Of a DNA stretch of 60,946 nucleotides, positions 732-53,868 are shown one piece after another; positions within the stretch are counted from its first letter, which is position 1; every line of letters begins with the position of its first letter. Source of the stretch: Catajapyx aquilonaris (Eukaryota); NCBI GenBank assembly GCA_000934665.2, contig KZ538586.1:1-60946 (forward strand), written 5' to 3'. The notes under the pieces are model-generated. The model was not told the DNA's origin. It saw nothing but the letters and a program-made list of their open reading frames with translations, and did not search any database. Made by a program: the position numbers and the translations under genes.

Positions 732-1712
732 TACATGTACTGAATGAAAGCAAAAATAAAAAGGCCCGTGCAACAGCTAGAGGTCCGCACTTCCTAAAAT
801 AAATTCTACTGTAAATCCCGGTACAAATTATACACACCGAATGTTTTCATTGCTATCGAATCCGATTCAGGTGGGGAAAATATTTTGAAACCAATAATAC
901 TGTACCGTATATTGACTTTGCAGTACGACCTTTTAAAAACGCAAGAAGGATTTAGGGCAAACAATAACAAGAGCCTGTGCCTGGCGTGGGCTGACAAAAG
1001 GGCAGGTAAAATGACTCATCCATGGGAATGAGCATGCAAGCACATGAAGTGAACCTACTGTCTCCTGTTGCATCGGATGAGGCGGCTGCTTTCTTTCTGC
1101 ACTCTTCTGACTACTAAGCTCCTGATTATCGACCGTCATCTTCAGTTTCTAAGGAGTCGCTGCTATGAGTTCGTTATCCAAGCTGACTCCAGATTTCCTT
1201 CCAGTGCGACACCATTCTACCCCCACTTTCATGCACAAACTAGTAATTATTATTGATGTATGCGCTATGACTATGTTTCGGACTGTCAGCTCCCGCCGTT
1301 TGTTGTTGCCAACAGCTGGGTTGCAGCTATACCTCGGTACTTTTCCAGCACGAATGAGGGTGAAATGAAACACGCGATTGCCTCTCCAAATCCATTTGGC
1401 GCGTTGAATTATTTCATCCGAGGGGGTCTACTAGTGAAAAGAAAGGCTATTGTTAGAAATGCATTGATGAATAATTTTTGAAGGGCAATATGAGAGTAAA
1501 TGATCTGAACTGAGGTAGCCTGTGAGGTATCTCCCTACGGTACCTGTCGAGGCATACTAATCAGTAATTTTTGAAATGTGACAGAGTCGATTTTGCATCA
1601 TGGAAATTGCGTTGCAGAACTAGTTCAGTGGTGTGGTGGAGGAACGTGCCATGCCGAGGGTTTTCAAGCTAAACGGAACTTTTTCGATTTATGAAAGGTC
1701 AACTCTATAATA

Positions 1713-2149
1713 CAGGGTGTAACTGAACTCAGTGCACAGACGTATATGACTGCCTTCCTAGGCACCCGAGGATCGATTTAGGTAGAGGAGTCATTATGTC
1801 TGGGCCGCCGCATTACCGAGATAATTGCCCCTAAACATGTAGTAAAAAATATCCTGTCGGTTAGGCCACCCATCGAACTCTCCCCCAGTCACAAGGAGCG
1901 ATTAGGCAAAAACGTTGTGTTGTGGTTTGTAATTTCAATTTGTTCTGAATGTCGCTGCTAATTTTGAAGAGCACTGGCACTTTCACTGCTATTTACAAAT
2001 CCCTCTTTAGCCAAATCGCTAACTATCAGGTGGGTCGATTATCTCGGTAATGCGGCGGCCCAGACATAATGACACTCTACCTAAATCGATCCTCTGGTGC
2101 CTAGGAAGGCAGTCATATACGTCTGTGCACTGAGTTCAGTTACACCCTG
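1713..2149. mobile_element. 437-bp Tc1/mariner-type MITE with ~115-bp TIRs
   Basis: TA|CAGGGTGTAACTGAACTCAGTGCACAGACG ... CGTCTGTGCACTGAGTTCAGTTACACCCTG|TA; near-perfect arms. Confidence 0.92.
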
Positions 2150-3795
2150 TATAGAAGGAAGACTCAAAATATAACCTTGATTCCCAACCTTTACGCAATG
2201 CCTGGCTTACATATTATGCATGAAAAATTAATGAATAACATTTTGACAAACAGTGTGCATATGACATTAAATACCCTTCTCCCGAATCACTGACTCAATA
2301 CAAATCAGTGATTGCCTCATCAGATTTTTTAAAAACCAACTGAAATGCACTACCAACCTCACATACGGTGATAAGGTGAATGTGAGAAAATATATCAGAA
2401 AATTGAAGTGGTGACTGACATTTTTAGAAGTGCAACTGGCAGGGTTGCCAACATGACTGTTAATGAGATTGATATTATTCGTCTAAGGTCCATCAAGCAT
2501 CTTGCCTCTTCTGGCCTCTCGAGGTGCGTTTACATCAGGGGGAAGACGTGGTTGAGATAAAGGCTAACTGCTATCGAGAAGCGAAACCGCATGTATACAC
2601 CACGAACTCTCTTCGGACGAGTTGCCCCGGGCGAGCTCCCTACTTTGCCTCAAAAACGCAGACGAAGTTCGTCGACTTGTTGGCACCCTTGCCACGGTGG
2701 ACATGATAATCTACCGGGAATTTAATAAATCGGCGATTAATAAACGCTCCATATGAAAAACACTCTATACCAGGAATAGTTCACTCCTTGCCTGGCCGTA
2801 AGCAACATGTAAACTGGTTCTCTGAGATAGGCAGGCATACTGAATAGTTACCTGGAACACATATACTTATGGATGGTGACAGACCCAGGCCTCTCCTCCG
2901 TATAGTGTCAGGCATTCTTCCAAAGTGTTTTGAGCGGGAGGAGCGAGAAAGAGCGCACTTATTAGCCCATACATGGAATCACAGACACTAAAAATAGCTA
3001 TTTTGAATATATGCCAACATTTATAGGAGACGAAATTTAACCTTTTCAGCCCCAAGGATCTAGAATCTAGGCGATGAGAAATCGACCACGCAGTATTGCC
3101 ATAGCATTTTAGAGTTAACTTACATGTAGTTACATCGCATATACGCAGTGAGGACTCAAAATGTATCCTTAATGCTTATCCATGTCAATCATACCTCGTC
3201 AACCTCTATAATGCTTGTCCACACGCAATGCCGGCTTGTTTTGGAAATCGTGCATAATTTGTCGACTCGCATTAGGCAGCCCACGGTCCAACCCCATGTC
3301 CATAAATGCTTCCGCCTCTGCATATAATCCTGCGATCGTCATACGTTAGCTGGGGATATTGTCATTTAGAAATTGTTCCAAACTTTTTTATTTGAACAAA
3401 ATTTATTTAAATTATAAGGGTGAATTTTCCGCAGATAATATAAATGTAAAAAAACCTTGAGAGTAAATTTTGTAACTTCAATATATTTTAGATCATTATG
3501 TTATGCACGTAATAATTATTGTTGCCTTACTAATCTTGACTGGAACCACCTCCACAGTATTTTTCGACACCGGACAAATTAACCACTTCACTCCACAATT
3601 TTTAAGATCTTTAATTATTAAGTTGCAATATTAACTGTTTGTCTTAATATTTTTGACTGATCCCAACAGTAAATTAAGCACTGAATATAAGCTCTAGTGT
3701 TACATTACACGGGGTAATCAAAGAATACCAAAGGAAAGGGAATTCAGTGAATGATTGTTGTATAATCACTGGACGTTCTGCTCTATGATGTTAAT

Positions 3796-3834
<39 letters not shown>

Positions 3835-3955
3835 CGACATTTCCCTATGAGGGGTAGTCAGCGATGAAGGGAGACGCAAGCTAACCCAACATATGAACTA
3901 ATAAAACTCATGAGAATAAACCTAAAAACAACCCGTCATACCCCCCACCCCTGCC
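3796..3955 (-). mobile_element. 5'-truncated non-LTR retroposon 3' end with (GTT)n tail
   Basis: (AAC)n at 3796-3834; 10-bp direct repeat TGATGTTAAT at 3786-3795 and 3956-3965. Confidence 0.7.
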
Positions 3956-4003
3956 TGATGTTAATGATACTAAGATATATTTATTGATATAAGGTAGACC
4001 GGG

Positions 4004-4053
4004 GCCCCACTAAGAGGGCTCCTCCCTAAAATGGGGTGCATAAAATAAAAAAA

Positions 4054-4116
<63 letters not shown>

Positions 4117-4117
4117 A
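4004..4117 (+). mobile_element. Very short retroposed 3' end with (TAAA)n tail, inserted at the left TIR of the adjacent MITE
   Basis: 15-bp direct repeat ATAAGGTAGACCGGG at 3989-4003 and 4118-4132 around ~45 bp unique sequence plus a (TAAA)n run. Confidence 0.75.
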
Positions 4118-4121
4118 ATAA

Positions 4122-4832
4122 GGTAGACCGGGCAAGTGGAAACCTGTTAATTTCTCGCTTATAGTATGTTATTTATAAGCCTTCCATTATAGTTAAAAAA
4201 AAACATTGCACTCACAACCAAACTAACTCTTCTTACCCTCCCAAATTTTGAAAATGTTTGGATTTTCTAATTCTGCTTGACCTATAGTGTTGTGAAAACA
4301 TCACATCTGCTGCTAATTTTCACGCTAGCAGGTTCAAAATACAAAGCCAAAAGACCGAAATTCCGAAGCCACAACACCTGCATCCGATCGCGGGTGGTGG
4401 GTCGCCGGTCCCAGCTGGCCGTTCGCGGGTCGCGGATATCAGTGATTTGATAATGATTGATTAAACTTGGTTCATATATTGCTACACAAAATCGATTTCG
4501 AAGCGCGTGAGGTCATATCCTACTTGCTCGCGCCACCCTAGAGCGCGCTACAGTCGCGGCGACCGGGGACCTGCGACCCGCGACCGGCTGCTAGGTGTTG
4601 TGGCTTCGGGTTCTCGCATTTAGCTTGTATTTTGACGTGGAAATTAGCGGCGGAGGTGATGTTTGCACCACAAGTATCGGCGGAAACATGAGCTACTTTT
4701 GCAGTCAGTGGCTGCACCAGAGTCGTATACATTGTTTCCCAACAATTGGCTCTCAGGATATTATTTCCAGTATGATTTTTCACCCGGTGCGGTGTTCCAA
4801 TTACCACAGATTTTCACTTACCCCGGTTTACC
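4122..4832. mobile_element. Old, degenerate palindromic DNA-transposon derivative (superfamily uncertain)
   Basis: Left GGTAGACCGGGCAAGTGGAAACCTGT vs reverse complement of right end GGTAAACCGGGGTAAGTGAAAATCTGT; internal inverted match ~4295-4412 vs ~4565-4675. Confidence 0.7.
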
Positions 4833-4980
4833 TACTTAATTCAGATTTATGTTGTTGCTGCCAATAAATTACTGATTTCCAAAAGTAAGTGCATTTTGGG
4901 CATTAAACGCTTTTAAAATATTCCCCAAAATCAACATGGTTATACACGATGACACAGTGACGTAGCCACCCCCACACCAC

Positions 4981-5085
4981 NNNNNNNNNNNNNNNNNNNN
5001 NNNNNNNNNNNNNNNNNNNNNNNNNNNNNNNNNNNNNNNNNNNNNNNNNNNNNNNNNNNNNNNNNNNNNNNNNNNNNNNNNNNNN
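4981..5085. other. Assembly gap (N run)
   Basis: 105 consecutive N. Confidence 1.
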
Positions 5086-6503
5086 CCCCGAGAAACCTAG
5101 GCTATTATCCAAAAGTCGACGAAAATTACTAATTTATGATTTTTGGAAAAATTGATGCCAATTTTATCATCTACACACCCATTGAAATCTCCCACATTGA
5201 CCTAAGCTCGTGTGACCTTGAACCCCCCAAAATTTACCTATACCCGTTTTGCTACCTCCGGAAAAATTTTGTCACGCGAGAGGGAGTGACCAAGGTGCGA
5301 AAGTATAATTATGCTTGGCTGCGAGAGTGCTCGGCATAGACGTACAAACTGTTGTGCCTTGATCTACAGGGTGTTTGGGCCGTTGGGTGTTTATGACCGT
5401 GTAGTTATGTTAATTTTTGGTCAAAAATTATTTTCACAATTTTTCTCCAGCCATCAGAAATGCGGTAATACTATATGATAGCTTGTAATGATGGGACAGA
5501 TGCTAACATCGGGGGAATAGCTTGCACTATCATGAAGAATTATTGTGACAATCAAAGTCAAGCATTCACCTCAACAAAACATTTACTGTATTCTTATTCT
5601 AATTATAGCAATAATTGCAATGATAATTCAGAAAGCAATTTTATATTTGTTATAACAATAACATTGTTATAACAAAATAATATGAAATTGTTTTCTGAAT
5701 CATGATATCTCAACTACTCCAGGGAATTGTTTCTGGTGCACTTTGGAAATCAATACTCGAAGATCGTAAAGTTACCTAAGAAATTTATTTATGTCATTTA
5801 TTAAATGCGTCAACTATTCGCGGTTCAAGCAAAACTGTTGATCAATATCAGGTTAGGCTCGCAAACAAGCTAACACCTGTTGTTAACAAGTGCGCTTGAG
5901 ACTTGGGATTTGGCGGATTTCCACAATCTCGTACACATTCACACAATCTCTCAGACAATTATTTGTTGATGTCATAAGCAATGTTTACGCACATGTGTAT
6001 AGGCTACTCTAGCATCTCTAACATATGAGCTCAACCTGTAGGTCATGTGGTGAAGACTGCGAGATGTGTGTACATATTATAACAGTGTCTTTCTGGTATT
6101 TACAAATGCCCCGACTACGACAAAATTAATATTATGATACCCGTTTCGATTCTCGTCAATATTTTATACCCGTTCACCGTACATACACGCCCATGCACCT
6201 ACGCACATCCACGCACACCACGAATATCTGTAGATTTGAGTGCTGCCACTTTGAGTCCACTCCGACGTCTGAATCGCCATTGAATTTCCCCGCCAAAACG
6301 AGCTTAATTTGAGACACTACCACCAAAGCCCTGCATGCCATCCACGTGGGTAAGTTTCACAGTTGTTCCCAGCTGTTGGCAACCATGGTCGGCCATTGTA
6401 GGACGACAGCCAAAAAAAGAATTTGGAAATGCCTGACTGGCAGTCTGAAACAACTGAGTCCTGCCGCTCTCTCCAGGACTTTGCTGGCAGTATTGAGAAG
6501 GGC

Positions 6504-6566
6504 CCCCCTTCCCTCCCTCCCTCCCTCCCTCCCTCTCTCCCTCCCTCACTCCCTCCCTCCGCCCCC
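6504..6566. repeat. (CCCT)n low-complexity tract
   Basis: Imperfect CCTC/CCCT tandem run. Confidence 0.8.
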
Positions 6567-7309
6567 TGAATCCTTTCGAACGCCCAATCTGCCCACCCCC
6601 GCCTAAACACGCGCCATCTCTACGTGGGTCCACGATACGCAGCGCTGTTGCCACGTTGCAAATGGCGGTTTTTGGGGGAAGGGATGGTGTGCGAATTGAT
6701 TGCACCACTTCCCCTACTCCCCCGCACACTCCCTCCGCGCAGGTACATTCGACTGCAAGTGCAAGAATGCTCTTCCGTCGCATTTTTAGTTTGTACCCCA
6801 GCCCCCTACAATCCATGCTCTTATCTTTCCACTGATAGTCTGGACCTGATGTCAGCGACTCCTTCTGAGTGGATGGTGTACGAGGGTGCCAGTACGATCC
6901 AGAAATTTCACATACTTATGCGTTGAATGCAAAGGTAAAATTTAAACATCCTGTGAAAAATGACACTTGTGGCACCCCAGATGTTCCCAACGTCTTGAAT
7001 TGGGAGACCTGCGATCGATCCCAGTACGGTCTCTCCCTAGTGCGGTGGTTTAAATTACTGCGGAAAGCGGAGTTGAAGATGCGGAATGAAAACCATTCTG
7101 CCAGAATACATTTTTCCCTTGTCACTTATTAATGAAAAGTGCCTTGCGTGGTCTGTGAGGTTTCAACCCTCATTTATTGTAGTATTTGGAGGAAAACAGT
7201 TCATTTCGGTTCATTTGCTACTTTCATAGCAATTCTGTTCCATAATTCTTTATGGGCCTGTAGATTTTCACATGTGCTGATGTTAAACTATTCAGTAGAG
7301 TAGACCTAT

Positions 7310-7830
7310 GCATTTACAGTTAACTTTGAGAATAATATGGTATCAAAATTATAAGCATAATGAAGATAGGATAATCTCAAGATGATCCTTCGCGGCCATG
7401 TGAAATAAACCCAATCATCCTACATTAATATGGTGCTTCCCTATAACTGCTTCTCATTGTACTGTATAACGTGTATAGACAAGCCAAATTCAGAGTAATG
7501 CATTGCATTGCCAAGAATCAAGCGACTTCCTTAGTAGTCCTTTTATTTTGCTTGGATAGTAGATGCCATCAAAACACTTTACACAACGTTGAGTTATTAG
7601 TTTTAATGGCCTCTATTGATGCACTCGTACATAACTACTGCTCTCACAAATTATGTTTCATAAGAAACTGTCCGCATACATTTTGCCATATTTCTTGCTG
7701 CCTCATCAGTCCTCCTGTAACTAAAAGGTTACTAATTATTATTATAGCCGATCCAGATTTCAAAGTCTGGCACATGCCTGTTTGCATAACATTGTGGAGA
7801 TCAACATAAATTGTAGCATGATAATGAGAT
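7310..7830 (-). pseudogene. Heavily decayed IS630/Tc1-like DDE transposase fossil
   Basis: Minus-strand peptides SRLILGNAMHYSE (~7489-7527) and IILRLSYLHYAYNFD (~7342-7386) resemble SVIVMDNASYHS and VLRLPPYHCxxNPIE in the correct order; many stops and frameshifts. Confidence 0.35.
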
Positions 7831-9498
7831 TCCGAGTAATATCAAAATGGAAATAATTTTATAGCAAGAGAAACATTTGTCATCCTCATCTAATCGACAC
7901 TGTCCTGTTCCCACTGCTACCAAAAGAGTCTATATTAAATCAAGTCGGCAAGATATCAATCGTGCCGGGCCTTTTCACTCACTTTACAGGGTCTGTGAAA
8001 CGTGTCTGGAGCAGTGTCAGCCTATACAACTGTGAGCAGCCAGAGAATAGTATTGACGTCTCAGGTCTTTAACTGTAGTGTCATTTTTTACCATCGTGAC
8101 GTCACAATATTATTTTCTGGCTGCAGCATGAACGGTAATAGTATACTATTGGAAGCATCAGGTACAAAAATGCCTCATAAACGATGACGTGGTGGCGTAA
8201 CTAAGGGCTAGTGACGTTTTATATTACACGTACAGGTCTGTATCGCCAGCACAATGGGCAGTTCGAACCTTTTTTGATCTCGGTTGCGAGACCAAAATAC
8301 TCTGCATAATTGCCGGATGGGAGGAATCATTAAAGCTTGCGGCTGCGATCAAGTTTTGGTGACTTCCCAAGTGAATGATTGAAAATATTCTCGGCCACGG
8401 GTTTATGCGATGACATGTGCATATCAGAAAACACCATACACAGTGGTTCATATACGTGGCCATCAGCAGCCCTCAATTGTCGCCGCAAGCCTTAATAATA
8501 TGTCCAGCAGCCAAAATGGACGTGGAACATTTTTGTCACAAGGGGAACATCCCTACCCTGTATGCATTATTCGAATCAAAACTGACTTCACAGACACCCC
8601 CGCCCCGTCGTCTAACCATCCCGACCAATATTGCCGCTAACGACTAAATTAAAACAAACTCAGTTGGAGATCTTGAACTCAACAAGGAGTATACTATTTC
8701 ATCATCGTTCAAAATATTTTCCGAAATATTGTGCAATGCATTACATGATTGAAACAACATTACACAATGATTTTGTTAAAATGACTTATTGTTACTCATT
8801 ATACAATGAACTATGTGAGCAGTAGACTACTTTAATCACACACCATATGACGCTGAATACTAGTAGGCATAAGCAGTAAATGACACATCACCTACTCTGA
8901 CCTACACTGTTGCCACTTCAGCTACGTACCGGTATTGATTTTCAATAACACCAGACATTTTAAGCGTTAAAAACGATTAAATCACAAGCGATGCAGGGAA
9001 TGGTCGACAACCAATTCGTATAAATTTTATATCACATGCGGTCATTGTCGTCATTTTCAGTTCTTGCGAACGCAAATTACTTGGAATCATTTATAAAACA
9101 TAGAGGAGTCATTTTTCATGAAACAAACACACATCATTGCCTTATTTTATTCATATCAGCATATTGAATAATTGTGGATCGTCTATGTGTAAATCGTCAT
9201 AAGAGACATAAGAAAATAATAAACAGTCTTTCCTGATAGTGATATCAGCCAAACTTCTCGTTCGATTTGCAAAATAAAATAACATAATTATTCGGGTAAA
9301 TGTCTAACAGGTGAATGGGCCAGGGAACATAATTATATTGGAACCTTTTATATTAGTAATTATTAAGGCAAGGCTTAATCTTATTTTGTGCGTATGACGC
9401 TTTGCGCCAACGAAGTTGAAACCTGTCTAGGAATTTACTTTCATGCTGTTTTTCCATGTTACGGCGTTGTTTTGCAGTTCTCAATTTTGTATCCTTGA

Positions 9499-9634
9499 GG
9501 GCCGGTTTCACCGAGCTCAGTATATGATAAAACCTGATAAAACCACGGTTCTTTAGCAAAAACCCTATCTATTTGTATGGATTTTCCTAAAGAAACCTGG
9601 TTTTATCATATACCAAGCTCGGTGAAACCGGCCC
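9499..9634. mobile_element. PIF/Harbinger-like (Tourist-type) MITE
   Basis: TIR GGGCCGGTTTCACCGAGCT / AGCTCGGTGAAACCGGCCC; 3-bp flanks TGA/TTA. Confidence 0.8.
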
Positions 9635-9694
9635 TTAGAAATGAAATGTTCAAATCTGGAAAACGTCATCAAAAATCTGGTGAAACTGGTATGT

Positions 9695-9697
9695 TAT

Positions 9698-9775
<78 letters not shown>

Positions 9776-10052
9776 TATTATTATTATTATAATAGTAGTA
9801 GTAGTGGATACCCCGTGATAGGCCTCCTTATGCCTTTTAGGGAATCATCTTTTCTTTAAACAGTATTTATTTATTTCCTGTCCTGTGTGGATTTTGATTG
9901 CGGGAAGAAACGGGAGAACCCCGAAAACACCCACGCGAACACGGAGAGAACACATCGAAACTCTATCCACGTAAGTATCCTGTCCCATCCGGGGATCGAA
10001 CTCGGGACCTCAGAGGTGGAAGGCTGTGGCGATAACCACTACACCACCGCCC
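9695..10052 (-). mobile_element. tRNA-headed SINE with V-domain-like core and (ATT)n tail
   Basis: Minus strand: A box TGGTGTAGTGG, B box AGTTCGATCCC; core GTTCTCTCCGTGTTCGCGTGGGTGTTTTCGGGGTTCTCCCGTTTCTTCCCGC (9900-9965); microsatellite tail 9695-9805; imperfect TSD TGAAACTGGTATGT (9681-9694) / TGAAACCAGTATAT (10054-10067). Confidence 0.85.
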
Positions 10053-10625
10053 ATGAAACCAGTATATAACAGAACCTGTATACTGAGGAAACTTGTCAAT
10101 GACTGAAATTGTCATTTTGTGTTAAGGGTGGATTTTCTACGTATTTCTGTGCTCCACAATTTAAGAACGTGTTTTGCAAGGAACACTTTCGTGGAAAGGA
10201 TTTACACACGTAATGAGGTGTAGCGTCATAAAAGATCCAATTGAATTACTAACCAGGATTTTTCAGGTAGAATATATCAATCTTATATTATACATAATGT
10301 ACTGTAACAGTAATAAAATATTATTTTCATGTCAAGTATGGTTGGTGTAAAGGAATAGAGGGTGTGTTGTGTCCACGCCTGCGCAGAACGCTGTCCAGAC
10401 CCTGTCGCACCATTTACGCACGTGCAGAGACGATTTGAGATGCTACTGCTTGCAAGTGTAATGATGACATTTATGTTCGCTCATGCGCAGACGGCTATTT
10501 TGTACGCATGGCATACGCAGTGCAACCGATCCCCTTTTAGGTATCTCAAGCAGCTAATACCTCGTACATTTTTCACTTATGACGGTTTGCACAGACTCTC
10601 TACAGTTTACTCCAAGACCTGGGAG

Positions 10626-10868
10626 CAGGGCTTCCCAATTTTTTTCGTTGCCGATCCCAGAAAATAGTTTCGTAAAATTCTCGACCCCAGCTTTCAATTC
10701 AAACCTACTCAGTGGTAGTCAATGACAATCATCGATAATAATGTAACATCTTCTCGTTTAAGGGCGTATTTTTCCAGAGATAATTATAATCATTTTGTAA
10801 AAATAATTTGTCACTCTCCCCCGCGACCCCAAATATTATGTTCGCGACCCATAATTTGGGAAGCACTG
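10626..10868. mobile_element. hAT (Charlie/Buster-like) MITE, degenerate
   Basis: CAGGGCTTCCCAA ... TTGGGAAGCACTG ends and repeated CGACCC subterminal motifs; 8-bp TSD not preserved. Confidence 0.7.
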
Positions 10869-12451
10869 ACCTATATATAGAGTAATAATATATACCATAT
10901 TTCGATAGCCAATGACAACGCGTTTATATAGGTAGTACCTTCATTGGGCCTTTTCTCGAGCACATTTATCCATATTCACTTGCCACTGGAAAACCATTCG
11001 AGTTAATGTGGAGAGGACACAATTTTTCCCCTCGTTTATAGACTACATAAAGAGGATTCCGTACGTCATGGACTCACATTTTAGCCTTAAAGCAATATTT
11101 CCTTCGGTGAACGCTGATCCAAAAAGTTCCCCAGATATCATTTCTGCCGTTCAGGGCGGAAAGAGGCAGACAAAATTTCCTGGATTTTAAACTGCGTTTT
11201 TTCTTTTCCTTTCGGAGCGAAGAAGTGATGGAGTTAAAAGTGCATGGCGTAGTTTTTTCTTCTCTCGCAACATTCTCGCCTGGTAGCAATCATTCTTTTC
11301 TTGCTTTTTGTGTGACCGACATTGTTCTGAAATAGTTTACAACACGCCTCCAGGTCATTTTAACATTTTATTGATTTTCTTAAAATTTGCTTTTCATCAC
11401 TTACGCAATAAAGGGCAATTGAAACTAGACATACAAAAGTTTAGCACATATTTCATTATTGTTAATTGTTTTAGTAACCAATTATTTCATAACCACGAAA
11501 CACTGTCCGTTATGAGTTGACAGGAACTGAGGCAAGTTTCCCGGGCAGAGGTTGTCAGCAACTTCCGGATTTGCTTCAAGTATAGCCTCCTACATATTAA
11601 TTTTACTGGGCAGCACGCGTATTGTACTGTGTGACGGAATATAATTTTTATTATGCTACCATTTTAATTATAACAAATTTCTTGAAGGGCACAACGCCAG
11701 TTTATCAACTGTGGCAGAAGGGAAATGCAGGATACACGCAATGGTAATGCCATCTAAAATCATTGCCGTCGCATACAGTAACTACCTGTGAGGTAGCTAT
11801 GCCTCCCAGTCAAAAATGATGTAGAATTAAATATGTTGGTCTTAGAATAAGTTCAGGAATCGCCATATTTGAAGCAAATGCTAGACTTCCCTCCCTGTAT
11901 CCATATAGGCAGACATACTGTACACTGTATATTTCCCTCTTTGTACTGTTCTATTTTACTATACCGATAGGCTGGAACTATGGTCTAATTATAACTGCAC
12001 CTACAAGAGTGGAAGACAAGTGTTCCATATGAATGGAAGTTTCCTGTTCGGAAGCACTAGTTTTAAACGAGTTAAAGGTGATTTCAAATATTCCGAAAAA
12101 TGAGGAACATCTGAGTTTGGCTTCCGTGACTTTGATTCTTTGAGAGTGGTAATCAAATTAAACATTTAGAATGTGTACCTTAATTGTGTCTGATGAAGCT
12201 ACAGCTTGGCAAGTTCATTATCAGTCAATATACAGTGTATTTATTCCGGACGTGATTCAATTTCAATGGCATCACTTTCATGGCCATCACAATCCATATG
12301 GAACCATTCACAATAATTATCAGGCAGAGGGGTTTTTGTTCTTGCACACAAAAGGGTCTCTTGCAGCCCAGAAATTTTCGAAAAATCAATCCTTCCAGTA
12401 TATAAGCGTAATTTGGAGGCCATTCTTTTGGCAAGCTTCCAGGTCATTATA

Positions 12452-12851
12452 CAGGGCGATTCTCTCGAATGAAAACCCAAACATTCCTCAAAAACTTTTT
12501 TACTATGGTATGGTTCCCGGTGAAAATTGACATGTACTTACCTTGTATCATGCCAAACAAGGTCTGACTAAAGAATATACCAAAAGTGATCCAGGAATTT
12601 TTTAATGCGAGTCTGCATCTTTACCGAAGACTCCTCCCGACTGGCGATGGCGGCGGGCTGGAGATTGAGCCATCCCCGCCGCCAGTCGGGAGGAGTCTTC
12701 GGTAAAGATGCAGACTCGCATTAAAAAATTCCTGGATCACTTTTGGTATATTCTTTAGTCAGACCTTGTTTGGCATGATACAAGGTAAGTACATGTCAAT
12801 TTTCATCGGGAACCGTACCATAGTTAAAAGTTATTGGGGAATGTTTGGGTT
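12452..12851. mobile_element. Palindromic Tc1/mariner-type MITE lacking its right terminus
   Basis: TA|CAGGGCG start; arms ~12474-12646 and ~12680-12851 are near-perfect inverted copies; mirror of the first ~22 bp is absent. Confidence 0.85.
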
Positions 12852-13000
12852 GCGAACAACATTCAGGCCACAACTGAGCAAGGTTCCACACATTGATGAC
12901 TGATACTGTAGAATGGGAATAAGTTGTTCTGCACCTGCTGGGAGACGTATCTACTTTGAAGTTCCACTGTGCTGGATATTGACCCTATCTCTGTAAATTT

Positions 13001-13225
13001 CTTTGAGTGGTTTTCAGCCCCATTTGAGTGATTTTTCACTCAACCTTCACCTTAAAATTGGAAGCAATTAATTTGAGTCGTTTACTTGAGCACTTTTATG
13101 TCGCTCAAAATGTGAGCATTACCTGAATCAGTTTGAGCACTATGTGACTCCATTTGAGTATAAATTCTTCTCAATTTGAGTATTCTCAAGACCTCAAATT
13201 TGAGTGACTTACCTTCACTCGAATT
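13001..13225. repeat. Cluster of TTTGAG/CTCAA motifs, probable MITE interior
   Basis: About a dozen TTTGAG or CTCAA hits in both orientations in ~220 bp; ends not resolved. Confidence 0.4.
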
Positions 13226-13574
13226 TTGTGCGATCCTACCCCTGACCTTTTTCCTACAATACTAAAAATTGTTGCAGTATCACTACGAAAGGTTCATTAA
13301 GATAAACATGTTATTTTCTCCATCATAGCGCTTATAATAATTGTTTAACTCGAAAATGGGCCACGTTCATCAAAAAGCATAATTTATAATACGAGCAATC
13401 GTAGCAATACTGCAGCAGTCTTGCCATATATACAGTATACATATGGAACTCATTTCTAGTCAGACTGCCGATTAAGTAGGTGCCATTAATCCTTATCGTC
13501 GGGTATTCTATCGCAAATCAGGATAATGGTTCTCACAAAATATAGAGAGCGGACGCCATTGCCCAAAATCTTTC

Positions 13575-13640
13575 GCCTACCCCCAAAATATTGTGTTCGC
13601 GTACCCCCAGGGGTATGCATACCCCAGTTTGAAAACCACT
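13575..13640. mobile_element. hAT MITE right-end fragment
   Basis: GTACCCCCAGGGGTATGCATACCCCAGTTTGAAAACCACTG, a typical Charlie-like end; left end not found. Confidence 0.55.
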
Positions 13641-13864
13641 GATTCTACACAGTCGTTATAGAAATATTGTAGTTAATCTTATTGTAGCAATTTTGCACGG
13701 GAGTTAACTTACCGCTTTCCTTTTAGATGCTCATAACTTTAACCTAAATGGCTGATGAGTACACTGATGTAACCAGTCACGTCATCGATATTTTTTCTGG
13801 GTACCGTAGTGCAAAATACCGTACATTTTGAATGTGCAAAGGAAAGCATTTTATAAGTCATTAA

Positions 13865-14614
13865 TAGAGTCCGGATTTTCAGGCACGCAAAAACACCGAA
13901 ATAGGCTCGAAAAACCCCTCAAATAGGTACAAAAAACCTCAAATATAGGCACGAAATTTTTACTTTTTCGGGAGTATAAAGGGTAATGTTACAGAAAATA
14001 AAAAAGCTAGAATAATTATTTTATAGCCTTAAAGTATAAATATACGGACACAAACCATAGCAAAAACCGAATAACAACGATAAACTGACAGGAAATCACA
14101 AAACTTGGGCAAAAGACACAGTGCAAGAAAGTATCACTTGCTCTGGACTCTACCGTTTATACAGTCTGTTTCCACTTGCACAATATGTTGCCAATTTTTT
14201 TACTAAGATTTCCTATGTTTGGAACAATCAGAGGAAATTTTTTTAAAATATTTGGAATACACGTCACAGAAACATGATTCGTAGTATTACTTCTCAACGA
14301 CTTTGGTCCTTTCAGAAGTACAATACATACTCCACCAAAAAAAAAAAAGAAACATGCCTCTGAAGAAATAGGCCCAAAGAGTCCCGAAATTGCTTCTGAA
14401 GGTACAAAAACTATCCCAAGAAAGGCAAAATAGGCATGAAAAATCGCAAAAATCCACAATAATAGTTCCCAAAACCACGAAATAGGACATTTTAGGCACT
14501 ATACACCCTATACATTTTCCGCATCCTGCACTTACGAAACGGATAGATCTCTTCACAAAACCATCGCAAGTGTTAAGGAACTAAATAGGCAATTGCCTAA
14601 AAATTCGGACTCTA
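13865..14614. mobile_element. 750-bp non-autonomous element with 8-bp TSD (hAT-like, TAGAG...CTCTA ends; family H1, copy 1)
   Basis: TIR TAGAGTCCGGATTTT / AAAATTCGGACTCTA; perfect TSD GTCATTAA (13857-13864, 14615-14622); many AAATAGG motifs. Confidence 0.9.
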
Positions 14615-15649
14615 GTCATTAATAAACTTCAAACTATCCCCATCGCATTGCAAGTGCATTCATCAACGGCATAGTTAATTTCTCCAAAAGATAATGTTTG
14701 CATCTCCTGATTTAGCGACCATATTTTTAGGCCGAATACCAAACACTTATCTGGTTTATGAAAGGATAAAGTTATAGCGTACAAAATGTATCGAGTACTA
14801 GTCCCACATGAGAAGACCAAACAAGAATCTGATAGGCGATAATCGCTCTTCCTTTAAAGGGAAGTCTGGGAATGGCCAGAACTGCAGGTAATTATTGACG
14901 CTGGGGAACCCATTCCTCGTTAAATGAAGGTAAAAAATTTAAACTCTCCCTACGGCAAACTTGCAGGTGAATTATTCACTGGACGAGTTTCAGCGCCACC
15001 GATAAGAATGTGAGCTCAGTTACGTTACACACGGCATACGACATGAAATGACCTTTTCACTTATTGCTTTGAGTGGTCACATAATCTTGTAGTATTAATT
15101 TTTAACTTGGCCTTTCCGAGTCAGATAAAGAGAATTGTTACTATACCTGATACTAACAGAAATGCAGCCTCAGTTTTGAGATATGGTATACTGTATGGGT
15201 CTTAGACACATTTTTGATAGAAATGCATTGCAATCTCTGATTATTACCTCCAAGATTGTTAGTGAACCAAGGCATTGCGGGACAAAAATTCATGTATGTA
15301 AAGAAAACAAGGATTTACATTACGGATGAAAAGGGACGTCGTCGGGGTGGTCACCTTGCCTCAATTTCTTTCTATACTGTATAGCGATGGAGTTTCAAGC
15401 ACGGTAGATACAAAGCACGGTATGATACAAAGATAGTGTGATGAAGCGGGGCAATCCGTGAACTACTCTTATTTTGATAATGAATACTATTGAGGTTCAT
15501 TGGTGGAAAAGTATTGGATTGTTAAACATGCTAAACATCATTTACATATTATTAAGTCGATGAAGCATTATTTTATATCGCTTCATTTTTCATGGCACTC
15601 GTACATTCATGACATACGGTCCTTCAGTTCACTTACGCTGTGAGAGACT

Positions 15650-16001
15650 TAATTTTAATTGTGTTAGTGCACCGCCTATTTGATGGGCATATGGCACGGT
15701 ACCTTTATTTGCTTTTTTTAAATGGTGTACACTGTACAAGCATGGTCCTTTTCCGTAATGCCCGGGTACCGCGAGCGAGGGAGGATTTTCTGGGAGGGGA
15801 AATATGCAGCTGCAGGTGCGAGTGCAATGTCGTTTTGTGCAGTCCCCTGGGTGTGGTTAGTCTCAAGGAATCCCACCCGATACGAAGCCAGAGAGCGAAA
15901 CACCGCACGAGATGAGAAAGGGAAGGCCTGGATTTTGGATCGAACCCGGGACATTTCTATCCGTGGGAGCGAGCGTTACCGCTGCGCCACTCCACCTCCC
16001 C
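15650..16001 (-). mobile_element. tRNA-derived SINE, tRNA-Arg(ACG)-like head (family S1)
   Basis: Minus strand GTGGCGCAGCGGTAACGC...ACGGAT...GGGTTCGATCC; body similar to 33967-34306; tail boundary approximate. Confidence 0.85.
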
Positions 16002-16236
16002 ATTGTGATAGACTATAATCAAAGGCAGAGCATGTCTACCTTTTTCCTCCAGCACACCGGAACAAGTCCATATAATGGCCCCGCCTGTTTTCCCGGAAGA
16101 GCTAAACTTATTTTGATAAAAGGCCCATTCACCACCGATTTTTCCTATTTTGGAGACTTCCAGTTCTACCCAAATTAATCAAGCTTGGCGGGAGTTATGA
16201 GGGCTTTTGTCTTTTTGGGTGCGTGACGACTAAAAA

Positions 16237-16298
16237 TGAAGGGTTCTCTGCAATAACCAGGTAAGCGCACTTACCTGGTTATTGCAGAGAACCCTTCA
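16237..16298. repeat. Perfect hairpin, 29-bp arms and 4-nt loop
   Basis: TGAAGGGTTCTCTGCAATAACCAGGTAAG-CGCA-CTTACCTGGTTATTGCAGAGAACCCTTCA. Confidence 0.95.
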
Positions 16299-18000: not shown

Positions 18001-18303
18001 TTTACCCCATTATATTTTGGAGGGTGGCACACCACCTTCAGTTTTCTGATTGGTTTAACTTCAATCTCCGGTGCAAGGAATCAAGGACATAGGGTAATGA
18101 TAGGGATTTTTGGGGGGAGGGAACATGGGTGCAAGTGCAATGTCTGAAAAGGGTTCATGTGCAGTCCCCCAGGAGGTTAGATTGCCAGACACCTCCCAAG
18201 TGCAGGTCAGAGACCCTCCAGACCTGCTCCCAGGCGGGGATCGAACCTGGGAACTTTGACTCAGAAAGCCGTGAAGTTTCCATCTGGGCCACAACACCTC
18301 CCC
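17918..18303 (-). mobile_element. tRNA-derived SINE with (ATT)n tail; body related to S1, head different
   Basis: Minus-strand A-box-like TGGCCCAGATGG and B box GGTTCGATCCC; (AAT)n at 17918-17997; shares GTGCAAGTGCAATGTC and GTGCAGTCCCC blocks with 15650-16001. Confidence 0.8.
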
Positions 18304-22342: not shown

Positions 22343-22606
22343 TTTGTTTTAGTTGGGGAAGCCCAGGCAACTAAGGCCATGAGGCTCAGGGGAGGGATGG
22401 GGCCAAGGATAGGGAAGAAAGGAATCGGCTGTGGCCTATTATATGGACGCTACCCCGGAATTATCCTGGGGGGACCGTGGAAAACCACAGAAAATCACGT
22501 AAACGTAACGGTCCAAGCAACGGTCAGAATCGCCGGCACCGGTATCGAACCCAGGACCTCCCGATTAGCAGTCGGACGCCTTAACCACTACACCAACCTG
22601 CATCGG
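22343..22606 (-). mobile_element. Full-length tRNA-derived SINE (family S2)
   Basis: Minus-strand A box TGGTGTAGTGG, B box GGTTCGATACC; TSD TGTTAACGTATCCAG (22328-22342) / TGTTATCGTATCCAG (22607-22621). Confidence 0.9.
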
Positions 22607-31782: not shown

Positions 31783-31932
31783 CTATCGGGTTCAAATACT
31801 TTTGGCCACTTTATCCTGGTCTTGAAGCAACCCTTCACGCACGCACACACACATCAATCCTTAACGTGGGGTCTGTGCAAAGGGTTGCTTCAAGACCAGG
31901 ATAGAGTGGCCAAAAGTATTTGAACCCGATAG
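31783..31932. mobile_element. 150-bp TA-flanked MITE (family M2, copy 1)
   Basis: TA|CTATCGGGTTCAAATACTTTTGGCCAC ... GTGGCCAAAAGTATTTGAACCCGATAG|TA. Confidence 0.92.
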
Positions 31933-32805: not shown

Positions 32806-32949
32806 CTATCGGTCTCAATTAGTTTCGGTCACTTTATCCTGGTCTTGAAGCAACCCTTCGCACAGGCCCCACTGTGTGAGGAGGTATGTGTGTGTGAAGG
32901 GTTGCTTCAAGACCAGCATAAAGTGGCCGAAACTAATTGAGTCCGATAA
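32806..32949. mobile_element. Family M2, copy 2 (spacer in opposite orientation)
   Basis: Shared core CACTTTATCCTGGTCTTGAAGCAACCCTTC and its inverted copy; TA flanks. Confidence 0.9.
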
Positions 32950-33966: not shown

Positions 33967-34306
33967 AATAATTAATAATAATAATAATTGTTTGGGTAAT
34001 GCTTTCACCCTATCAGGGTTTATCACATGGACCTTTATTTGTTGTATACATTGGAGCCTTTATACGTATCGCCCGGGCCCACGGGCAGGATGACAGGAGG
34101 GGATGTGCAAGTGCAGTGCATCTGACGTGTGGCCATTTTTAGTGAGCTCCCCCGGGTGGTTTAGTCTGTAGGAAATACCACCCGAGACGAAGCCAGAGGT
34201 GACCGACCTCTGCACGAGATGAAGGGGGTGTCCCCGGGCTGGGATCGAACCCGGGACCTTAACATCCGTGGGCGCGCGCGTTACCGCGGCGCCACTCCGT
34301 CTCCCC
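33967..34306 (-). mobile_element. Full-length tRNA-Arg(ACG)-like SINE (family S1) with (ATT)n tail
   Basis: 19-bp TSD TCAGAACCATGGACATAAT (33948-33966, 34307-34325); A box TGGCGCCGCGG and B box GGTTCGATCCC on minus strand. Confidence 0.93.
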
Positions 34307-35249: not shown

Positions 35250-37230
35250 GTCCAGGTGCTAAGGGACAAATTTGACCCAAACTTTGCATTTTGTGACAAA
35301 AGTATGAAACTCGGTACACTTGTCCTTTGGACACTTCTGATCATATCTGGACGTGGAGCCACGATGACCCACCCCGATGGTGGTCCATTTCGCAGGGTTT
35401 CCATAACTACCAGATGCAGCATCCTTTTAGGACCTTGTATTGGGTGACAAAAACATGAAACTCGCCACAATTGGTCTTTGGACACTTCTGAACATGTCTG
35501 GATGTGGGGCCATGATGACTGACCCCGCTGTGGGTCACTTTCAGGGTTGCCAGATCTAACGGACCAAACATACATCTCTGCAAGGATCATGTGAATTGGG
35601 AGCTTGCATTCGGTGATAAAAACGTGAAACGCGGTACGGTAGTTCTTCGAACACATCTCAACATTATTATGTGGACGTGGGGTCACGGTGGGTGACCCCT
35701 GGTGGCCTTGCCAGGGGTCACTATCGCGGAGTTGCCAAATCGAACATGTGTTGCACACCTTTACATGAATAAGGGCCTTGCATTCGGTGATAAAACACTG
35801 CTAAAACATGAAACTCGCCCCAATTGGTCTTCGGACACTACTGAACATGTCTGTAAGTGAGGTCACTATGGATGACCCCACTGGGGGTCACTCGCAGGGT
35901 TGCCAGATCTAATGGGCTCTCTAAGTAAACTATGTGAATAGGGAGCTTGCATTCGGTGACAAAGACGTGAAACTAGGTACAATATAGTTTTTTGCACACT
36001 TCCGAACATATCTGGACGTGGGGACACGATGACCCACCCCGAGGGAGGGCACTATCGCAGGGTTGCCATATCTAACAGAATGTGCAACATGTGTTTATTT
36101 TTGAATAATGAGCTTGCATTCGGTGACAAAGCCATAAAACTTGGTACGTTAGTTATTTGCACACTTCCGAACATATCTGGACGTGGAGCCACGATGACCC
36201 ACAGAATGCACGCTCATTATTTAAATATAAACGCATGTTGCACAGTCTGTCAGATATGGCAACGCCGCTATAGTGCCCTCCATCGGGGTGGGTCATCGTG
36301 GCTCCAAGTCCAGATATGTTCGGAAGTGTCCAAAGAACAATTCTACCACGTTTCACGTCTTTGTCACCAAATGCAAGCTCCCTATAAAAATATAAACGCA
36401 TGCTGCACAGTCTGTGAGATTTGGCAACACCATGATAGTGCCCTCCCCCGGGGTGGGTCATCTTGTCCCCACGTCCAGATATGTTCGGAAGTGGGCAAAG
36501 AACTATATTGTACCGAGTTTCACGTCTTTGTCACCGAATGCAATCTCCCTATTCACATAGTTTACTTAGAGAGCCCATTAGATCTGGCAACCCTGCGAGT
36601 GACCCCCAGTGGAGTCATCCATAGTGACCTCACTTACAGACATGTTCAGTAGTGTCCGAAGACCAATTGGGGCGAGTTTCATGTTTTAGCAGTGTTTTAT
36701 CACCGAATGCAAGGCCCTTATTCATGTAAAGGTGTGCAACACATGTTCGATTTGGCAACTCCGCGATAGTGACCCCTGGCAAGGCCACCAGGGGTCACCC
36801 ACCGTGACCCCACGTCCACATAATAATGTTGAGATGTGTTCGAAGAACTACCGTACCGCGTTTCACGTTTTTATCACCGAATGCAAGCTCCCAATTCACA
36901 TGATCCTTGCAGAGATGTATGTTTGGTCCGTTAGATCTGGCAACCCTGCAAGTGACCCACAGCGGGGTCAGTCATCATGGCCCCACATCCAGACATGTTC
37001 AGAAGTGTCCAAAGACCAATTGTGGCGAGTTTCATGTTTTTGTCACCCAATACAAGGTCCTAAAAGGATGCTGCATCTGGTAGTTATGGAAACCCTGCGA
37101 AATGGACCACCACCGGGGTGGGTCATCGTGGCTCCACGTCCAGATATGATCAGAAGTGTCCAAAGGACAAGTGTACCGAGTTTCATACTTTTGTCACAAA
37201 ATGCAGAGTTCAACCCCTTAGCACCCGGAC
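35250..37230. mobile_element. ~1.98-kb foldback element whose long TIRs are built of ~150-175-bp tandem subrepeats
   Basis: Ends TA|GTCCAGGTGCTAAGGG ... CCCTTAGCACCCGGAC|TA; subrepeat marker TGCATTCGGTGA(C/T)AAA recurs at ~35286, 35436, 35605, 35779, 35948, 36115 and is mirrored in the right arm; centre ~36205. Confidence 0.92.
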
Positions 37231-48452: not shown

Positions 48453-48602
48453 CTATGGGGCTCAAATTGTTTTGGCCACTTTATCCTGGTCTTGAGGCAA
48501 CCCTTCACACACACACACACACACACCTGCTCACCGTGGAACCTGTGCGAAGGGTTGCTTCAAGACCAGGATAAAGTGGGCAAAAGAATTTGAGCCACAT
48601 AG
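48453..48602. mobile_element. Family M2, copy 3
   Basis: TA|CTATGGGGCTCAAATT ... AATTTGAGCCACATAG|TA with (CA)n in the spacer; its right TA abuts a further CAGGGTG end. Confidence 0.9.
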
Positions 48603-51827: not shown

Positions 51828-52548
51828 AATTATTGACTGTCTATTTCTTTAAAATACCCAGACACATCTTTGCACTAGTCTATAGTTGTTTCGCCGTACA
51901 AGTTTTGCATCAACCCGTATTGTTTCCTGGCTGTTTTAGCGCAGAGATACCACGAAAACACCGGGAACACTTAGTAGAAATTGTATTATTAGCGTCGTCT
52001 CTTATTGGACGTAACCTAGCATATAGGTTGCAAAGTTGCAGCCTTTTTAGCCTTCATTTCTTGCCTTGGTAGGTGGTCCTTTATACGACGTGTACGATTC
52101 AATTGCCTATACATGTTCGTTTGTCATAAAAAGCCTACGCCAATATATTTACTCCTTACTGATATAATCTTACACATCACCTCAAAGGCTTACCAAGGCT
52201 TGTTTAGGCCGATGAATCTACACTGTTCATATGACGGCAGTGAATCAGTGATACAGCAGTTTGTTGCACCTTTTAGGACATGTTATAATAATTTCCTCGA
52301 GTCAAAGTGCATTCACTAGACTAGAGCGATCTTAAGGATATACAGTGGCTAGCAATTAACATATACACATACTGCATTCATGAAGATAACCAGCTACTTT
52401 TCGCTTGTGCAGGAAATTGCTTCCCTGTTAATCGATGGGACAGGCCCTTCCACCTTCTATAGAAATATTTAAAATGGCTTACCCCTACAAGGAGAAATAG
52501 GGTGTGTGTTAACCCTCTCCGGCTCTCCCAATACAAAACAACTTTCAT

Positions 52549-52837
52549 TGGTTGGTTGGTTTGGAAGGGTTACCCAGCTTATATGGCTCTGTCTGAGTCG
52601 AGCCTTGGCAGCCGGGGGTAGGAGAGGAAGGCGTGGGATTGCAAGGTGGGGGAGAAGGGTGGGGGAGAGGAGGGCTGGACCAGGCTGGACTGCAATGCCG
52701 GGTCCAACCCAGGGACGGGGGTGGGATATTCTCCCAAGCACCCCGTCCGACCAAGAAATACGAGTTGGTCCGAGAGGACCACTCGATGGGCGCCTTGATC
52801 TTAGCCAGAGGCCGAGAAGCGTATGATGGAAATACAT
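52549..52837 (-). mobile_element. Retroposon with U2 snRNA-derived head (candidate SINEU-like SINE)
   Basis: 15-bp TSD CAAAACAACTTTCAT (52534-52548, 52838-52852); (AACC)n tail; U2-like head at 52672-52824; CT-rich linker and unrelated ~65-nt 3' region. Confidence 0.85.
52672..52824 (-). pseudogene. U2: Internally deleted, diverged U2 snRNA derivative
   Basis: Minus strand CGCTTCTCGGCCTCTGGCTAAGATCAAG (U2 stem I); GAGTGGTCCTCTCGGACCAACTC (IIb-like); ATTTCTTGG (Sm-like); GGACGGGGTG...CACCCCCGTCC (III); GGGTTGGACCCGGC-ATTGCAGTCCA-GCCTGGTCCAGCCC (IV); GTAGTA absent. Confidence 0.9.
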
Positions 52838-53102
52838 CAAAACAACTTTCATATCTCAACACCTCTGATTCTGTGTGGTAAAGTGCCAAACAGTTGCGGT
52901 ATTTTTGACAAAGAAAAACGTTCAATTGGGTACACTTTGTACGCGAGTAAAAATGTGCGTTTCTTTTCTTGCATACATACGTATCATACATATGTAATTA
53001 TTTTGGTTATTATCATAATATATTTCTCCTGTTGATAGAAATGTGATCAAAGTAAAATGTTAAGGACATATTTGGGCTCACGTAAATATGTTTTTGTTAT
53101 GG

Positions 53103-53247
53103 GCTGCCCGAGGTCAGAGAAAAGGTCTGGTGTATCTGAGAGAGTCGTGAGTGACTATAAACCGTGGATGCCCCCCCTTGGGAACCTTCCCTCCCCCCAA
53201 AACGAGCCGAACGGCTCGAGCACGGGGTAACAATTTAAAAAAAAAAA
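53103..53247 (+). mobile_element. 5'-truncated poly(A)-tailed retroposon
   Basis: 15-bp TSD ATGTTTTTGTTATGG (53088-53102, 53248-53262); 3' hairpin CGAGCCGAACGGCTCG; A-tail. Confidence 0.8.
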
Positions 53248-53799
53248 ATGTTTTTGTTATGGCCTGGCACTGTAACACTAGTATTGAAACCCAAAGTAGT
53301 GCGTGCGATACTTGGGCGTGACTGCGCTGTAGTTGCACAGTTACAAACACTATCAAACTTGCAATTACAACATTGTCTTCCCTCAGATAAACCACCTAAA
53401 TACGTCTAGTTAGATTTCAAAAAAATGAATGCATTATCTATGAATTTTAATATTTCCCTGAAAGGGGCGCGAAGTAATTTTTTACATCGCACCTATTATC
53501 TTTGTATCATCACAGATCCGGTTGCCCCGCAGTAGCAGTTAAAATAACAGCTACTTTATAATCGCTGTAATTTGAATAATTGTCCGAGGCAGTCATTGAC
53601 GTAACATTGTCGACGCGAGTGTGAAGAAGTGGTGTTACTGGTAGGTATATGTATCATGCGAATGAAAAATAAATAAAAAAGTTTTATCTGGGTTCTTTGC
53701 GAACGTCAAAAAATTACTCGATAGACATAAGGAGGTTAAGGCAGTGAGAAAGAAAGAGATGAAGATAAAAAAGACAACGAAAAAAAGGGGGGAAACGAA

Positions 53800-53868
53800 A
53801 CCACGGCAGGATTCGAACCCAGGATCCTGCGATCTAGAGGCGGAATGGCTATCTATTGGGCTAGCGAA
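53800..53868 (-). mobile_element. tRNA-like SINE head fragment
   Basis: Minus-strand TAGCCCAATAG (A-box-like) and GGTTCGAATCC (B box); no complete cloverleaf. Confidence 0.5.

Follow-up and report, generated by a model that had tools for sequence, protein, structure and literature searches.

Why does a sequence derived from U2 small nuclear RNA (snRNA), with its stems and a protein-binding loop in place and its branch-point recognition module gone, lie in the genome of Catajapyx aquilonaris? The question is raised by contig KZ538586.1, which we analysed as one stretch of 60,946 bases (hereafter, the window). A first-pass annotation had described a U2-derived head at 52672-52824 and had taken its preserved pairing as a sign that the source RNA was selected as a structured, splicing-inert molecule, rather than decaying neutrally as a pseudogene. 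Here, we confirmed the description of the U2-derived head at these coordinates, far beyond chance. We conclude with good confidence that we are dealing with the head of a single copy, inserted and by now inert, of a retroposon family of the SINEU type, i.e. of short interspersed elements (SINEs) with an snRNA-derived head, with a U2-derived 5' part and an architecture like that of SINEU-3. Selection for pairing or protein binding by the head is not supported by our comparisons, and the earlier interpretation is thus partly supported overall.

With Rfam at gathering thresholds, the sole family above threshold in the window is U2 (RF00004), found on the minus strand at 52823..52665 (53.3 bits against a cut-off of 46, E 9.1e-08, model positions 1-192), which fits the annotated interval. 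Extending the search of the whole window to E <= 0.5 added only sub-threshold microRNA (miRNA)-like hairpins. According to the Rfam alignment, the head retains U2 positions 1-31, through GAUCAAG, and lacks both the GUAGUA branch-point recognition sequence and stem IIa; the same gap is seen when the head is aligned with genuine U2 genes, and the two alignments agree on the reported replacement of this module by a short filler. On the minus strand, stem-loop I together with the U2 5' end, as far as GATCAAG, occupies 52794..52826 (Rfam match and U2 alignment), followed by the filler GCGCCCAT at 52786-52793, which the same two sources define. The filler is 8 nt long, the ~9 nt given earlier having counted the next C as well. 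Because the branch-point recognition sequence and stem IIa are missing, the source RNA is unable to act as U2. Rfam scores lie at 137-191 bits for 12 full-length genuine U2 genes, compared with 53 bits for the head. Such copies nevertheless exceed the Rfam threshold and would be miscounted as U2 genes in annotation.

How is this U2-derived piece embedded? It forms the head of a 289-bp retroposon, which extends on the minus strand over 52549-52837 between the two copies of a target-site duplication. In minus-strand order, the element starts with 11 extra nucleotides and the U2 head (52826-52665). A C-rich spacer comes next, then a nested hairpin of 44 nt and finally a (CCAA)n-like tail, so that the part unrelated to U2, 3' of the head, comprises ~100 nt including the hairpin and then the tail. 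No U2 homology was found beyond 52665, and 52549-52664 is without U2 similarity in Rfam. The C-rich spacer (52617..52671, minus strand) is unrelated to U2 beyond that point and variable in its number of units, other copies carrying insertions of whole 6-nt units at 52644 (GGTGGG or GGTAGG, as read on the plus strand). When the whole element is folded, the 3' hairpin of the body (52573..52616, minus strand) is built from nested 7-bp and 5-bp stems in both the minimum free energy (MFE) and the centroid structures. Nowhere else in the family is the summed contig depth as high. We propose the hairpin as the recognition site for the reverse transcriptase of a partner long interspersed element (LINE). 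The tail, recognised from its sequence at 52549..52564 on the minus strand, varies in length, with insertions at 52561/52562 in other copies.

The target-site duplication is an exact 15-nt direct repeat, CAAAACAACTTTCAT, with its 3'-side copy at 52534..52548 and its 5'-side copy at 52838..52852. These are its two occurrences in the window, where no further one exists even at one mismatch, at a chance expectation of 0.03; one copy abuts the tail and the other lies 11 nt from the U2 5' end, the intervening 52827..52837 (minus strand) being the 11 extra nucleotides. This anatomy is that of a LINE-mobilised retroposon with a target-site duplication. No second copy of the element was found within the window, which marks it as a dispersed repeat rather than a local duplication, and the (CCAA)3 tail motif occurs at no other informative site in the window. 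We also considered whether the element could be the truncated tail of a longer LINE. This is unlikely, as U2 position 1 lies no more than 3 nt from where the similarity starts and another contig has its end at the same place.

The insertion itself sits inside another, multi-copy repeat (52838-52958), which contains the 5'-side copy of the duplication and has a summed contig depth of ~1000-1400, compared with 22-35 for unique sequence. Just before 52838, other copies of this repeat differ from the window, and they can be used as paralogous 'empty sites'; to the left of the insertion, the match between window and repeat is limited to ~20 nt.

Is the element one of many? Public Logan contigs from three DNA runs of the same organism (X1-X3), mapped to 52400-53000, show a word depth of 22.5 (X1), 35.4 (X2) and 15.6 (X3) in the unique left flank. 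Over 52547-52777 the summed depth rises to 2047-15218 (X1), 2736-16267 (X2) and 1066-6856 (X3), that is, to ~50-700 times the unique flank, although summed contig depth is no copy number and Logan contigs are short. At the variant sites 52581, 52682 and 52688, 12 to 24 distinct contigs were counted per run. The repeat has a sharp boundary at 52548. Loose ends before this position, from 8, 10 and 7 contigs in X1, X2 and X3, agree with each other at only 0.43-0.48, from which it follows that the flanks differ between copies; these heterogeneous flanks give no sign of a preferred target. A further run, X5, contributed a single contig with an 83-nt part only. Together with the target-site duplication and the tail, the many copies with differing flanks bear out the earlier view that the feature is not a lone, neutrally decaying pseudogene.

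The contigs also show which parts of the structure are common to the family. One X1 contig from another copy (record 3, 52623-52740), which differs from the window by 7 letters and 14 gap positions, spans the junction between U2 and body, with more than 31 letters on either side. Most other copies part from this one at 52765, where six X2 contigs (agreement 0.98) continue with a variant of the IIb-like hairpin and then with the same GGCGCC filler. As the filler recurs in the commonest variant, the sequence on the deletion side is a family trait. A contig from another locus stops matching the window at 52826, as would be expected if copies generally began at U2 position 1; the 11 nt at 52827-52837, which this contig does not contain, are accordingly specific to the present copy. 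In other public collections, a 22-mer of stem-loop III had no match in viral or metagenome contigs and a 29-mer of the 3' hairpin had none in the genome contig collection, host DNA being apparently absent from all of these.

We next turn to the structure of the head. Its fold has an energy of -76.3 kcal/mol, compared with -56.8 +/- 3.9 kcal/mol for 200 dinucleotide-preserving shuffles, none of which folded as well (z -5.0). The IIb-like hairpin, stem-loop III and stem-loop IV are each present in both the MFE and the centroid folds, and the statement that these stems still pair is thus borne out. The IIb-like hairpin (52761..52785, minus strand), identified from the fold and from stem IIb homology in the U2 alignments, is 25 nt long and lengthened by new outer pairs, CGAGT/ACTCG. 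Rfam, fold and alignment concur on stem-loop III (52713..52748, minus strand), with the outer stem GGACGGGG/CCCCGTCC and a tip that differs from every U2 gene in our panel (see below), and on stem-loop IV (52672..52710, minus strand). The latter carries the loop motif ATTGCAGT at 52689-52696, as had been reported, and its ATTGCA is without variation in an alignment of the head with 14 genuine U2 genes.

An Sm-like site between the IIb-like hairpin and stem-loop III had also been reported. It is present as ATTTCTTGG at 52751..52759 on the minus strand, recognised from the sequence and the U2 alignment; it is however non-canonical, its U run being interrupted by a C. Nine of the 12 full-length panel U2 genes have five consecutive T at this position, and no such run is present in the head; a C-interrupted site occurs also in one panel U2 gene (L002). 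A partial pairing of the site with GAUCAAGG appeared only when the head was folded alone and was absent from the fold of the whole element, and we dropped this claim.

Does the preserved pairing indicate selection? For comparison, we assembled a panel of genuine U2 genes by a pattern scan, which returned 25 metagenome loci and one genome-contig locus, and no match in the viral contig collection. As the pattern required GACGG at stem III, the panel is biased to one U2 type and cannot place the host. With stems III and IV taken as the structure, we counted pairs in the 15-row alignment of 14 panel genes and the head. In these stems, 96.1% of cells pair and both sides have changed in 11 of 22 pairs; none of 500 shuffles scored as high, and slid controls gave 1-4 two-sided pairs. 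Stems III and IV thus show covariation among genuine U2 genes of different lineages already, and the head could simply carry the stems of the host's own U2. For this reason, the argument that pairing preserved despite divergence means selection on the source RNA does not hold. The divergence itself lies within what a different host lineage would give. The 3' domain of the head is 63-71% identical to an insect-like U2 cluster, values that are somewhat low because MAFFT placed outer stem IV of the head one column off. Members of this cluster are 80-98% identical among themselves, and another panel U2 gene (L013) is 62-68% identical to the cluster. The head is presumably unlike vertebrate U2.

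A comparison of this copy with its family leads in the same direction. Over 52549-52765, at least 5% of the depth disagrees with the window at five substitution sites only (52581, 52648, 52679, 52682 and 52688). The window has the minority letter at all five, corresponding to ~2% divergence from the dominant reading. Three of the sites (52679, 52682 and 52688) fall in stem-loop IV, and there the dominant letters are also the commonest ones in the genuine panel U2 genes. The change at 52682 breaks a C-G pair of inner stem IV (a non-standard pair according to cmscan), that at 52679 makes an A-U pair where other copies have a mismatch, and that at 52688 alters the loop just after ATTGCAGT. With one pair broken, one made and the loop altered, these private changes do not preserve pairing and look like neutral decay after insertion. 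The 10-bp stem IV noted earlier is an accident of this copy, since most others differ at the three sites. The family is apparently young. The only hint of structural constraint is one pair of the IIb-like hairpin. The window has U-A at this pair, whereas an X3 variant (agreement 0.72) has U.G and the commonest variant in X2 has C-G. Read from 30-letter consensus strings, this may be a single covariation between subfamilies.

Could the source RNA nevertheless have been selected as a structured, splicing-inert RNA that binds an Sm core and a U2B''/SNF-type protein? Such an RNA would gain stability, a trimethylguanosine cap and nuclear re-import, and would have lost the branch-point module to spare splicing. 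We give this proposal, which is compatible with the SINE reading, a small but real chance. It would account for the retention of stem-loops III and IV, the loop IV motif and the Sm-like site together with the loss of exactly the branch-point and IIa module. Moreover, 52665-52765 contains no variant with a share of at least 5% among copies beyond the three changes of this copy, unlike the 5' part, which differs between subfamilies by several indels; the IIb pair with its U-A, U.G and C-G states would also fit. In the crocodilian SINEU-3 (Kojima 2015, Genome Biol Evol 7:1702, PMC4494074), the corresponding region of U2, following about nt 32, is also lost, a possible convergence. Set against this, the covariation of genuine U2 genes in the same stems makes selection after the birth of the SINE unnecessary, a young family retains structure without selection, and the private changes of this copy do not preserve pairing. 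The C inside the Sm-like U run departs from the five T of most panel genes, and the covarying pair comes from short consensus strings, one of them in limited agreement. A stronger version would make the element a separate SINEU lineage, outside crocodilians and of independent origin, whose head is functional for the element itself; the loss of the branch-point and IIa module after nt ~31 would then have been selected convergently in two animal lineages far apart from each other. This we regard as distinctly unlikely. The RNA would then assemble an Sm core and, on stem-loop IV, a U2B''/SNF-type protein, and the maturation and import route of small nuclear ribonucleoproteins (snRNPs) would return it to the nucleus and to the machinery of the partner LINE. 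A high-copy RNA still pairing with branch sites would poison splicing, and the loss of the module would be selected. Another, improbable explanation holds that the head was kept and remodelled for RNA polymerase III (pol III), with terminator T-runs removed and a box-like internal promoter gained. The 289-nt element is indeed without a run of at least four T, whereas all 12 full-length U2 genes have at least one (loop I in eight, the Sm site in nine); at these two places the element has the interrupted runs CCTCTGG and ATTTCTTGG. In crocodilian SINEU, by contrast, internal oligo-T was taken to exclude pol III (Kojima 2015). However, 59% of mononucleotide shuffles likewise lack TTTT, and a loop I without a run of four T is natural in four of the 12 panel genes. 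As regards a classical internal promoter, matches to A and B box consensus motifs occur at chance level. The window contains 110 B-box-like matches, where 113.8 are expected, one of them in stem IV (52699-52709, two mismatches); for the A box there are 249, where 233 are expected, with none in the element among the matches listed (all but 49). The absence of T-runs leaves pol III transcription possible on weak evidence. It is also the C interrupting the T run at the Sm site that renders this site non-canonical, which counts against preserved Sm binding.

Two further explanations would dispense with a SINE family. A one-off or recurrent chimeric retrocopy, made when a LINE reverse transcriptase switched template onto U2 as in mammalian U6-L1 chimeras, is predicted to join the natural 3' end of U2 directly to unrelated sequence, as observed here, and such chimeras are known for U1, U2 and U6 (Kojima 2015). 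The summed depth of the body is also somewhat above that of the head, and the body might exist headless. Independent events, however, would yield variable junctions and intact U2 heads; instead, high summed depth runs through head, junction and body, the contig of another copy bridges the junction, and the filler is common to the commonest variant. We consider this origin of the individual copies very improbable. That the locus is a functional gene for a variant U2-like snRNA has a practically negligible probability, despite an Rfam match above cut-off and a well-folding RNA. A head without branch-point recognition sequence or stem IIa, scoring far below the 12 genuine U2 genes, contradicts it, as does the anatomy: lying between target-site duplications inside another repeat, the insertion brought no upstream promoter. 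The private changes, moreover, break a stem IV pair and alter loop IV. A functional gene and a lone pseudogene are both ruled out by the retroposon anatomy and the amplified copies.

We therefore return to the SINEU-type family as the explanation that we favour. In the founder, a reverse transcriptase working on body and tail could have switched template onto U2 snRNA, or a U2 gene could have been read through. The internal deletion would have arisen once, in a master copy, and master copies would be transcribed from flanking or other promoters. The reverse transcriptase of the partner LINE would recognise the 3' hairpin and the microsatellite tail, and the element RNA would integrate by target-primed reverse transcription, giving rise to the target-site duplication and, in this copy, to the 11 extra 5' nucleotides. 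Most simply, the paired stems and the loop IV motif were inherited from the host U2 and kept since the family is young. The element might profit from its head, for instance through RNA stability or a nuclear return via Sm or U2B''-type proteins, but this is unproven.

Several observations weigh against this explanation. Our search of the window revealed no partner LINE with a matching 3' end, and the unit, like SINEU, is without a recognisable internal promoter. Its tail is a microsatellite, (CCAA)n, compared with the poly(A) of SINEU. X1-X3 are runs of one sample, possibly the assembly's own source, and do not constitute independent support. Across 52778-52840, which includes stem I and the junction, the depth falls to 100-610. 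This is far under the values for the rest of the element, and genuine U2 genes could account for part of it. As the 30-letter loose ends end before stem I, stem I upstream of the filler is not visible in the commonest variant, and other copies are seen in contig pieces, none of them full-length.

The window contains other repeats besides this element. A second small retroposon on the plus strand (53084-53266), ~145 bp long, ending in A12 and unrelated to the U2-headed element, is flanked by the direct repeat ATGTTTTTGTTATGG, a member of a 23-nt repeat family (D1, 91% identical, spacing 160). A tRNA-Ser(GCT)-like call by ARAGORN at 22530-22602 on the minus strand was not passed by Rfam. Four perfect B-box motifs lie on the minus strand of the window, among them 18237-18247, 34241-34251 and 53809-53819, and three of the four, not including 53809-53819, have an A-box-like motif ~40 nt upstream. 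The tRNA-Ser-like and B-box sites are probably heads of tRNA-derived SINEs. Hairpin repeats at 31805-31910, 32828-32927 and 48475-48580 match several miRNA models on both strands, far below cut-offs, and look like a palindromic family resembling miniature inverted-repeat transposable elements. A tandem repeat at 36205-36552 (165-bp unit, 2.1 copies, 85% matches) underlies the longest open frames of the window, which had no Pfam match. Of the 95 stop-to-stop open frames of at least 90 amino acids, the four that overlap the element were left out, and the other 91 matched no Pfam family. Among the contigs fetched for the U2 panel, a eukaryotic metagenome contig (L005) carries adjacent U5, U2 and 5S rRNA genes on one strand (42-157, 231-418 and 527-624), a linked cluster of small-RNA genes.

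How does the element compare with known systems? As defined by Kojima (2015), SINEU are SINEs with U1 or U2 heads, found in crocodilians only. They are also characterised by mobilisation through Tx1-clade LINEs and a shared target preference, for which the evidence here amounts to one insertion in a repeat and heterogeneous flanks of the other copies. SINEU-3 is an internally deleted U2 (5' 32 bp, ~50 bp deleted, middle 83 bp, then ~40 unrelated bp) with a poly(A) tail and with 90% of copies in Mariner-N4_AMi, judged a transposition unit since the deletion is common to its copies. The element described here has, in common with SINEU, a U2-derived 5' region, a length under 500 bp with an unrelated 3' part, a target-site duplication and a 3' tail. 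Like SINEU-3, it is a short retroposon with a single U2 deletion after about nt 32 (positions 1-31 being kept here), followed by later U2 sequence and an unrelated 3' part. The two also share target-site duplications (10-16 bp in SINEU-3, 15 bp here), the absence of a recognisable internal promoter, and a deletion common to copies, visible here in the recurrent GGCGCC filler. In contrast to SINEU-3, U2 continues here to its very 3' end, including stem-loop IV, rather than through the middle 83 bp only; the unrelated 3' part measures ~100 nt and includes a hairpin, instead of ~40 nt, the tail is (CCAA)n instead of poly(A), no target preference is seen and there is no internal oligo-T. The stems of the head, moreover, resemble those of insect-like panel U2 genes. 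SINEU-1 and SINEU-2 (Kojima 2015) likewise place an snRNA head on an unrelated 3' body, with subfamilies differing mainly at the 5' side and occasional 5' extensions; they carry repeated short U1/U2 fragments, compared with one nearly whole U2 with a single deletion here. Outside crocodilians, no curated U2-headed SINE was found in the literature, a search that did not cover Repbase or Dfam; the passages seen comprise one review-type statement naming birds as SINEU/SINE28 hosts and an automatic 'SINE_U' label in a Daphnia preprint.

Beyond SINEU, mammalian snRNA retropseudogenes and U6/U2-LINE chimeras (Kojima 2015) also combine snRNA with retroposon 3' sequence and target-site duplications and are LINE-made. 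Chimeric retrocopying of this mammalian type is a likely mode of origin of the founder, but those chimeras are independent events with variable junctions and few copies per junction, unlike the amplified, shared junction seen here. Monomeric Alu (FAM/FLAM/FRAM), an analogy drawn by Kojima (2015), is another internally deleted structured RNA that became a retroposon and kept its terminal protein-binding domains; its 7SL parent, however, has an internal or nearby pol III promoter and a proven SRP9/14 partner that aids retrotransposition, and nothing comparable is seen here. With genuine U2 genes (RF00004), the element shares the 5' end, stem-loop I, the IIb-like hairpin, stem-loops III and IV and the loop IV motif, and it differs from them in having no branch-point recognition sequence, no stem IIa and a non-canonical Sm site. 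SINEs with snRNA heads are the least understood SINE class, with promoter and use of the head unknown. The present element would add to SINEU-3 a second, abundant and apparently young family of 'U2 minus branch-point module', with a different tail, presumably a different partner LINE, and a host U2 type that looks insect-like. It would thereby offer an independent replicate for two questions, namely whether the deletion breakpoint is mechanistic or selected and whether the head recruits snRNP proteins.

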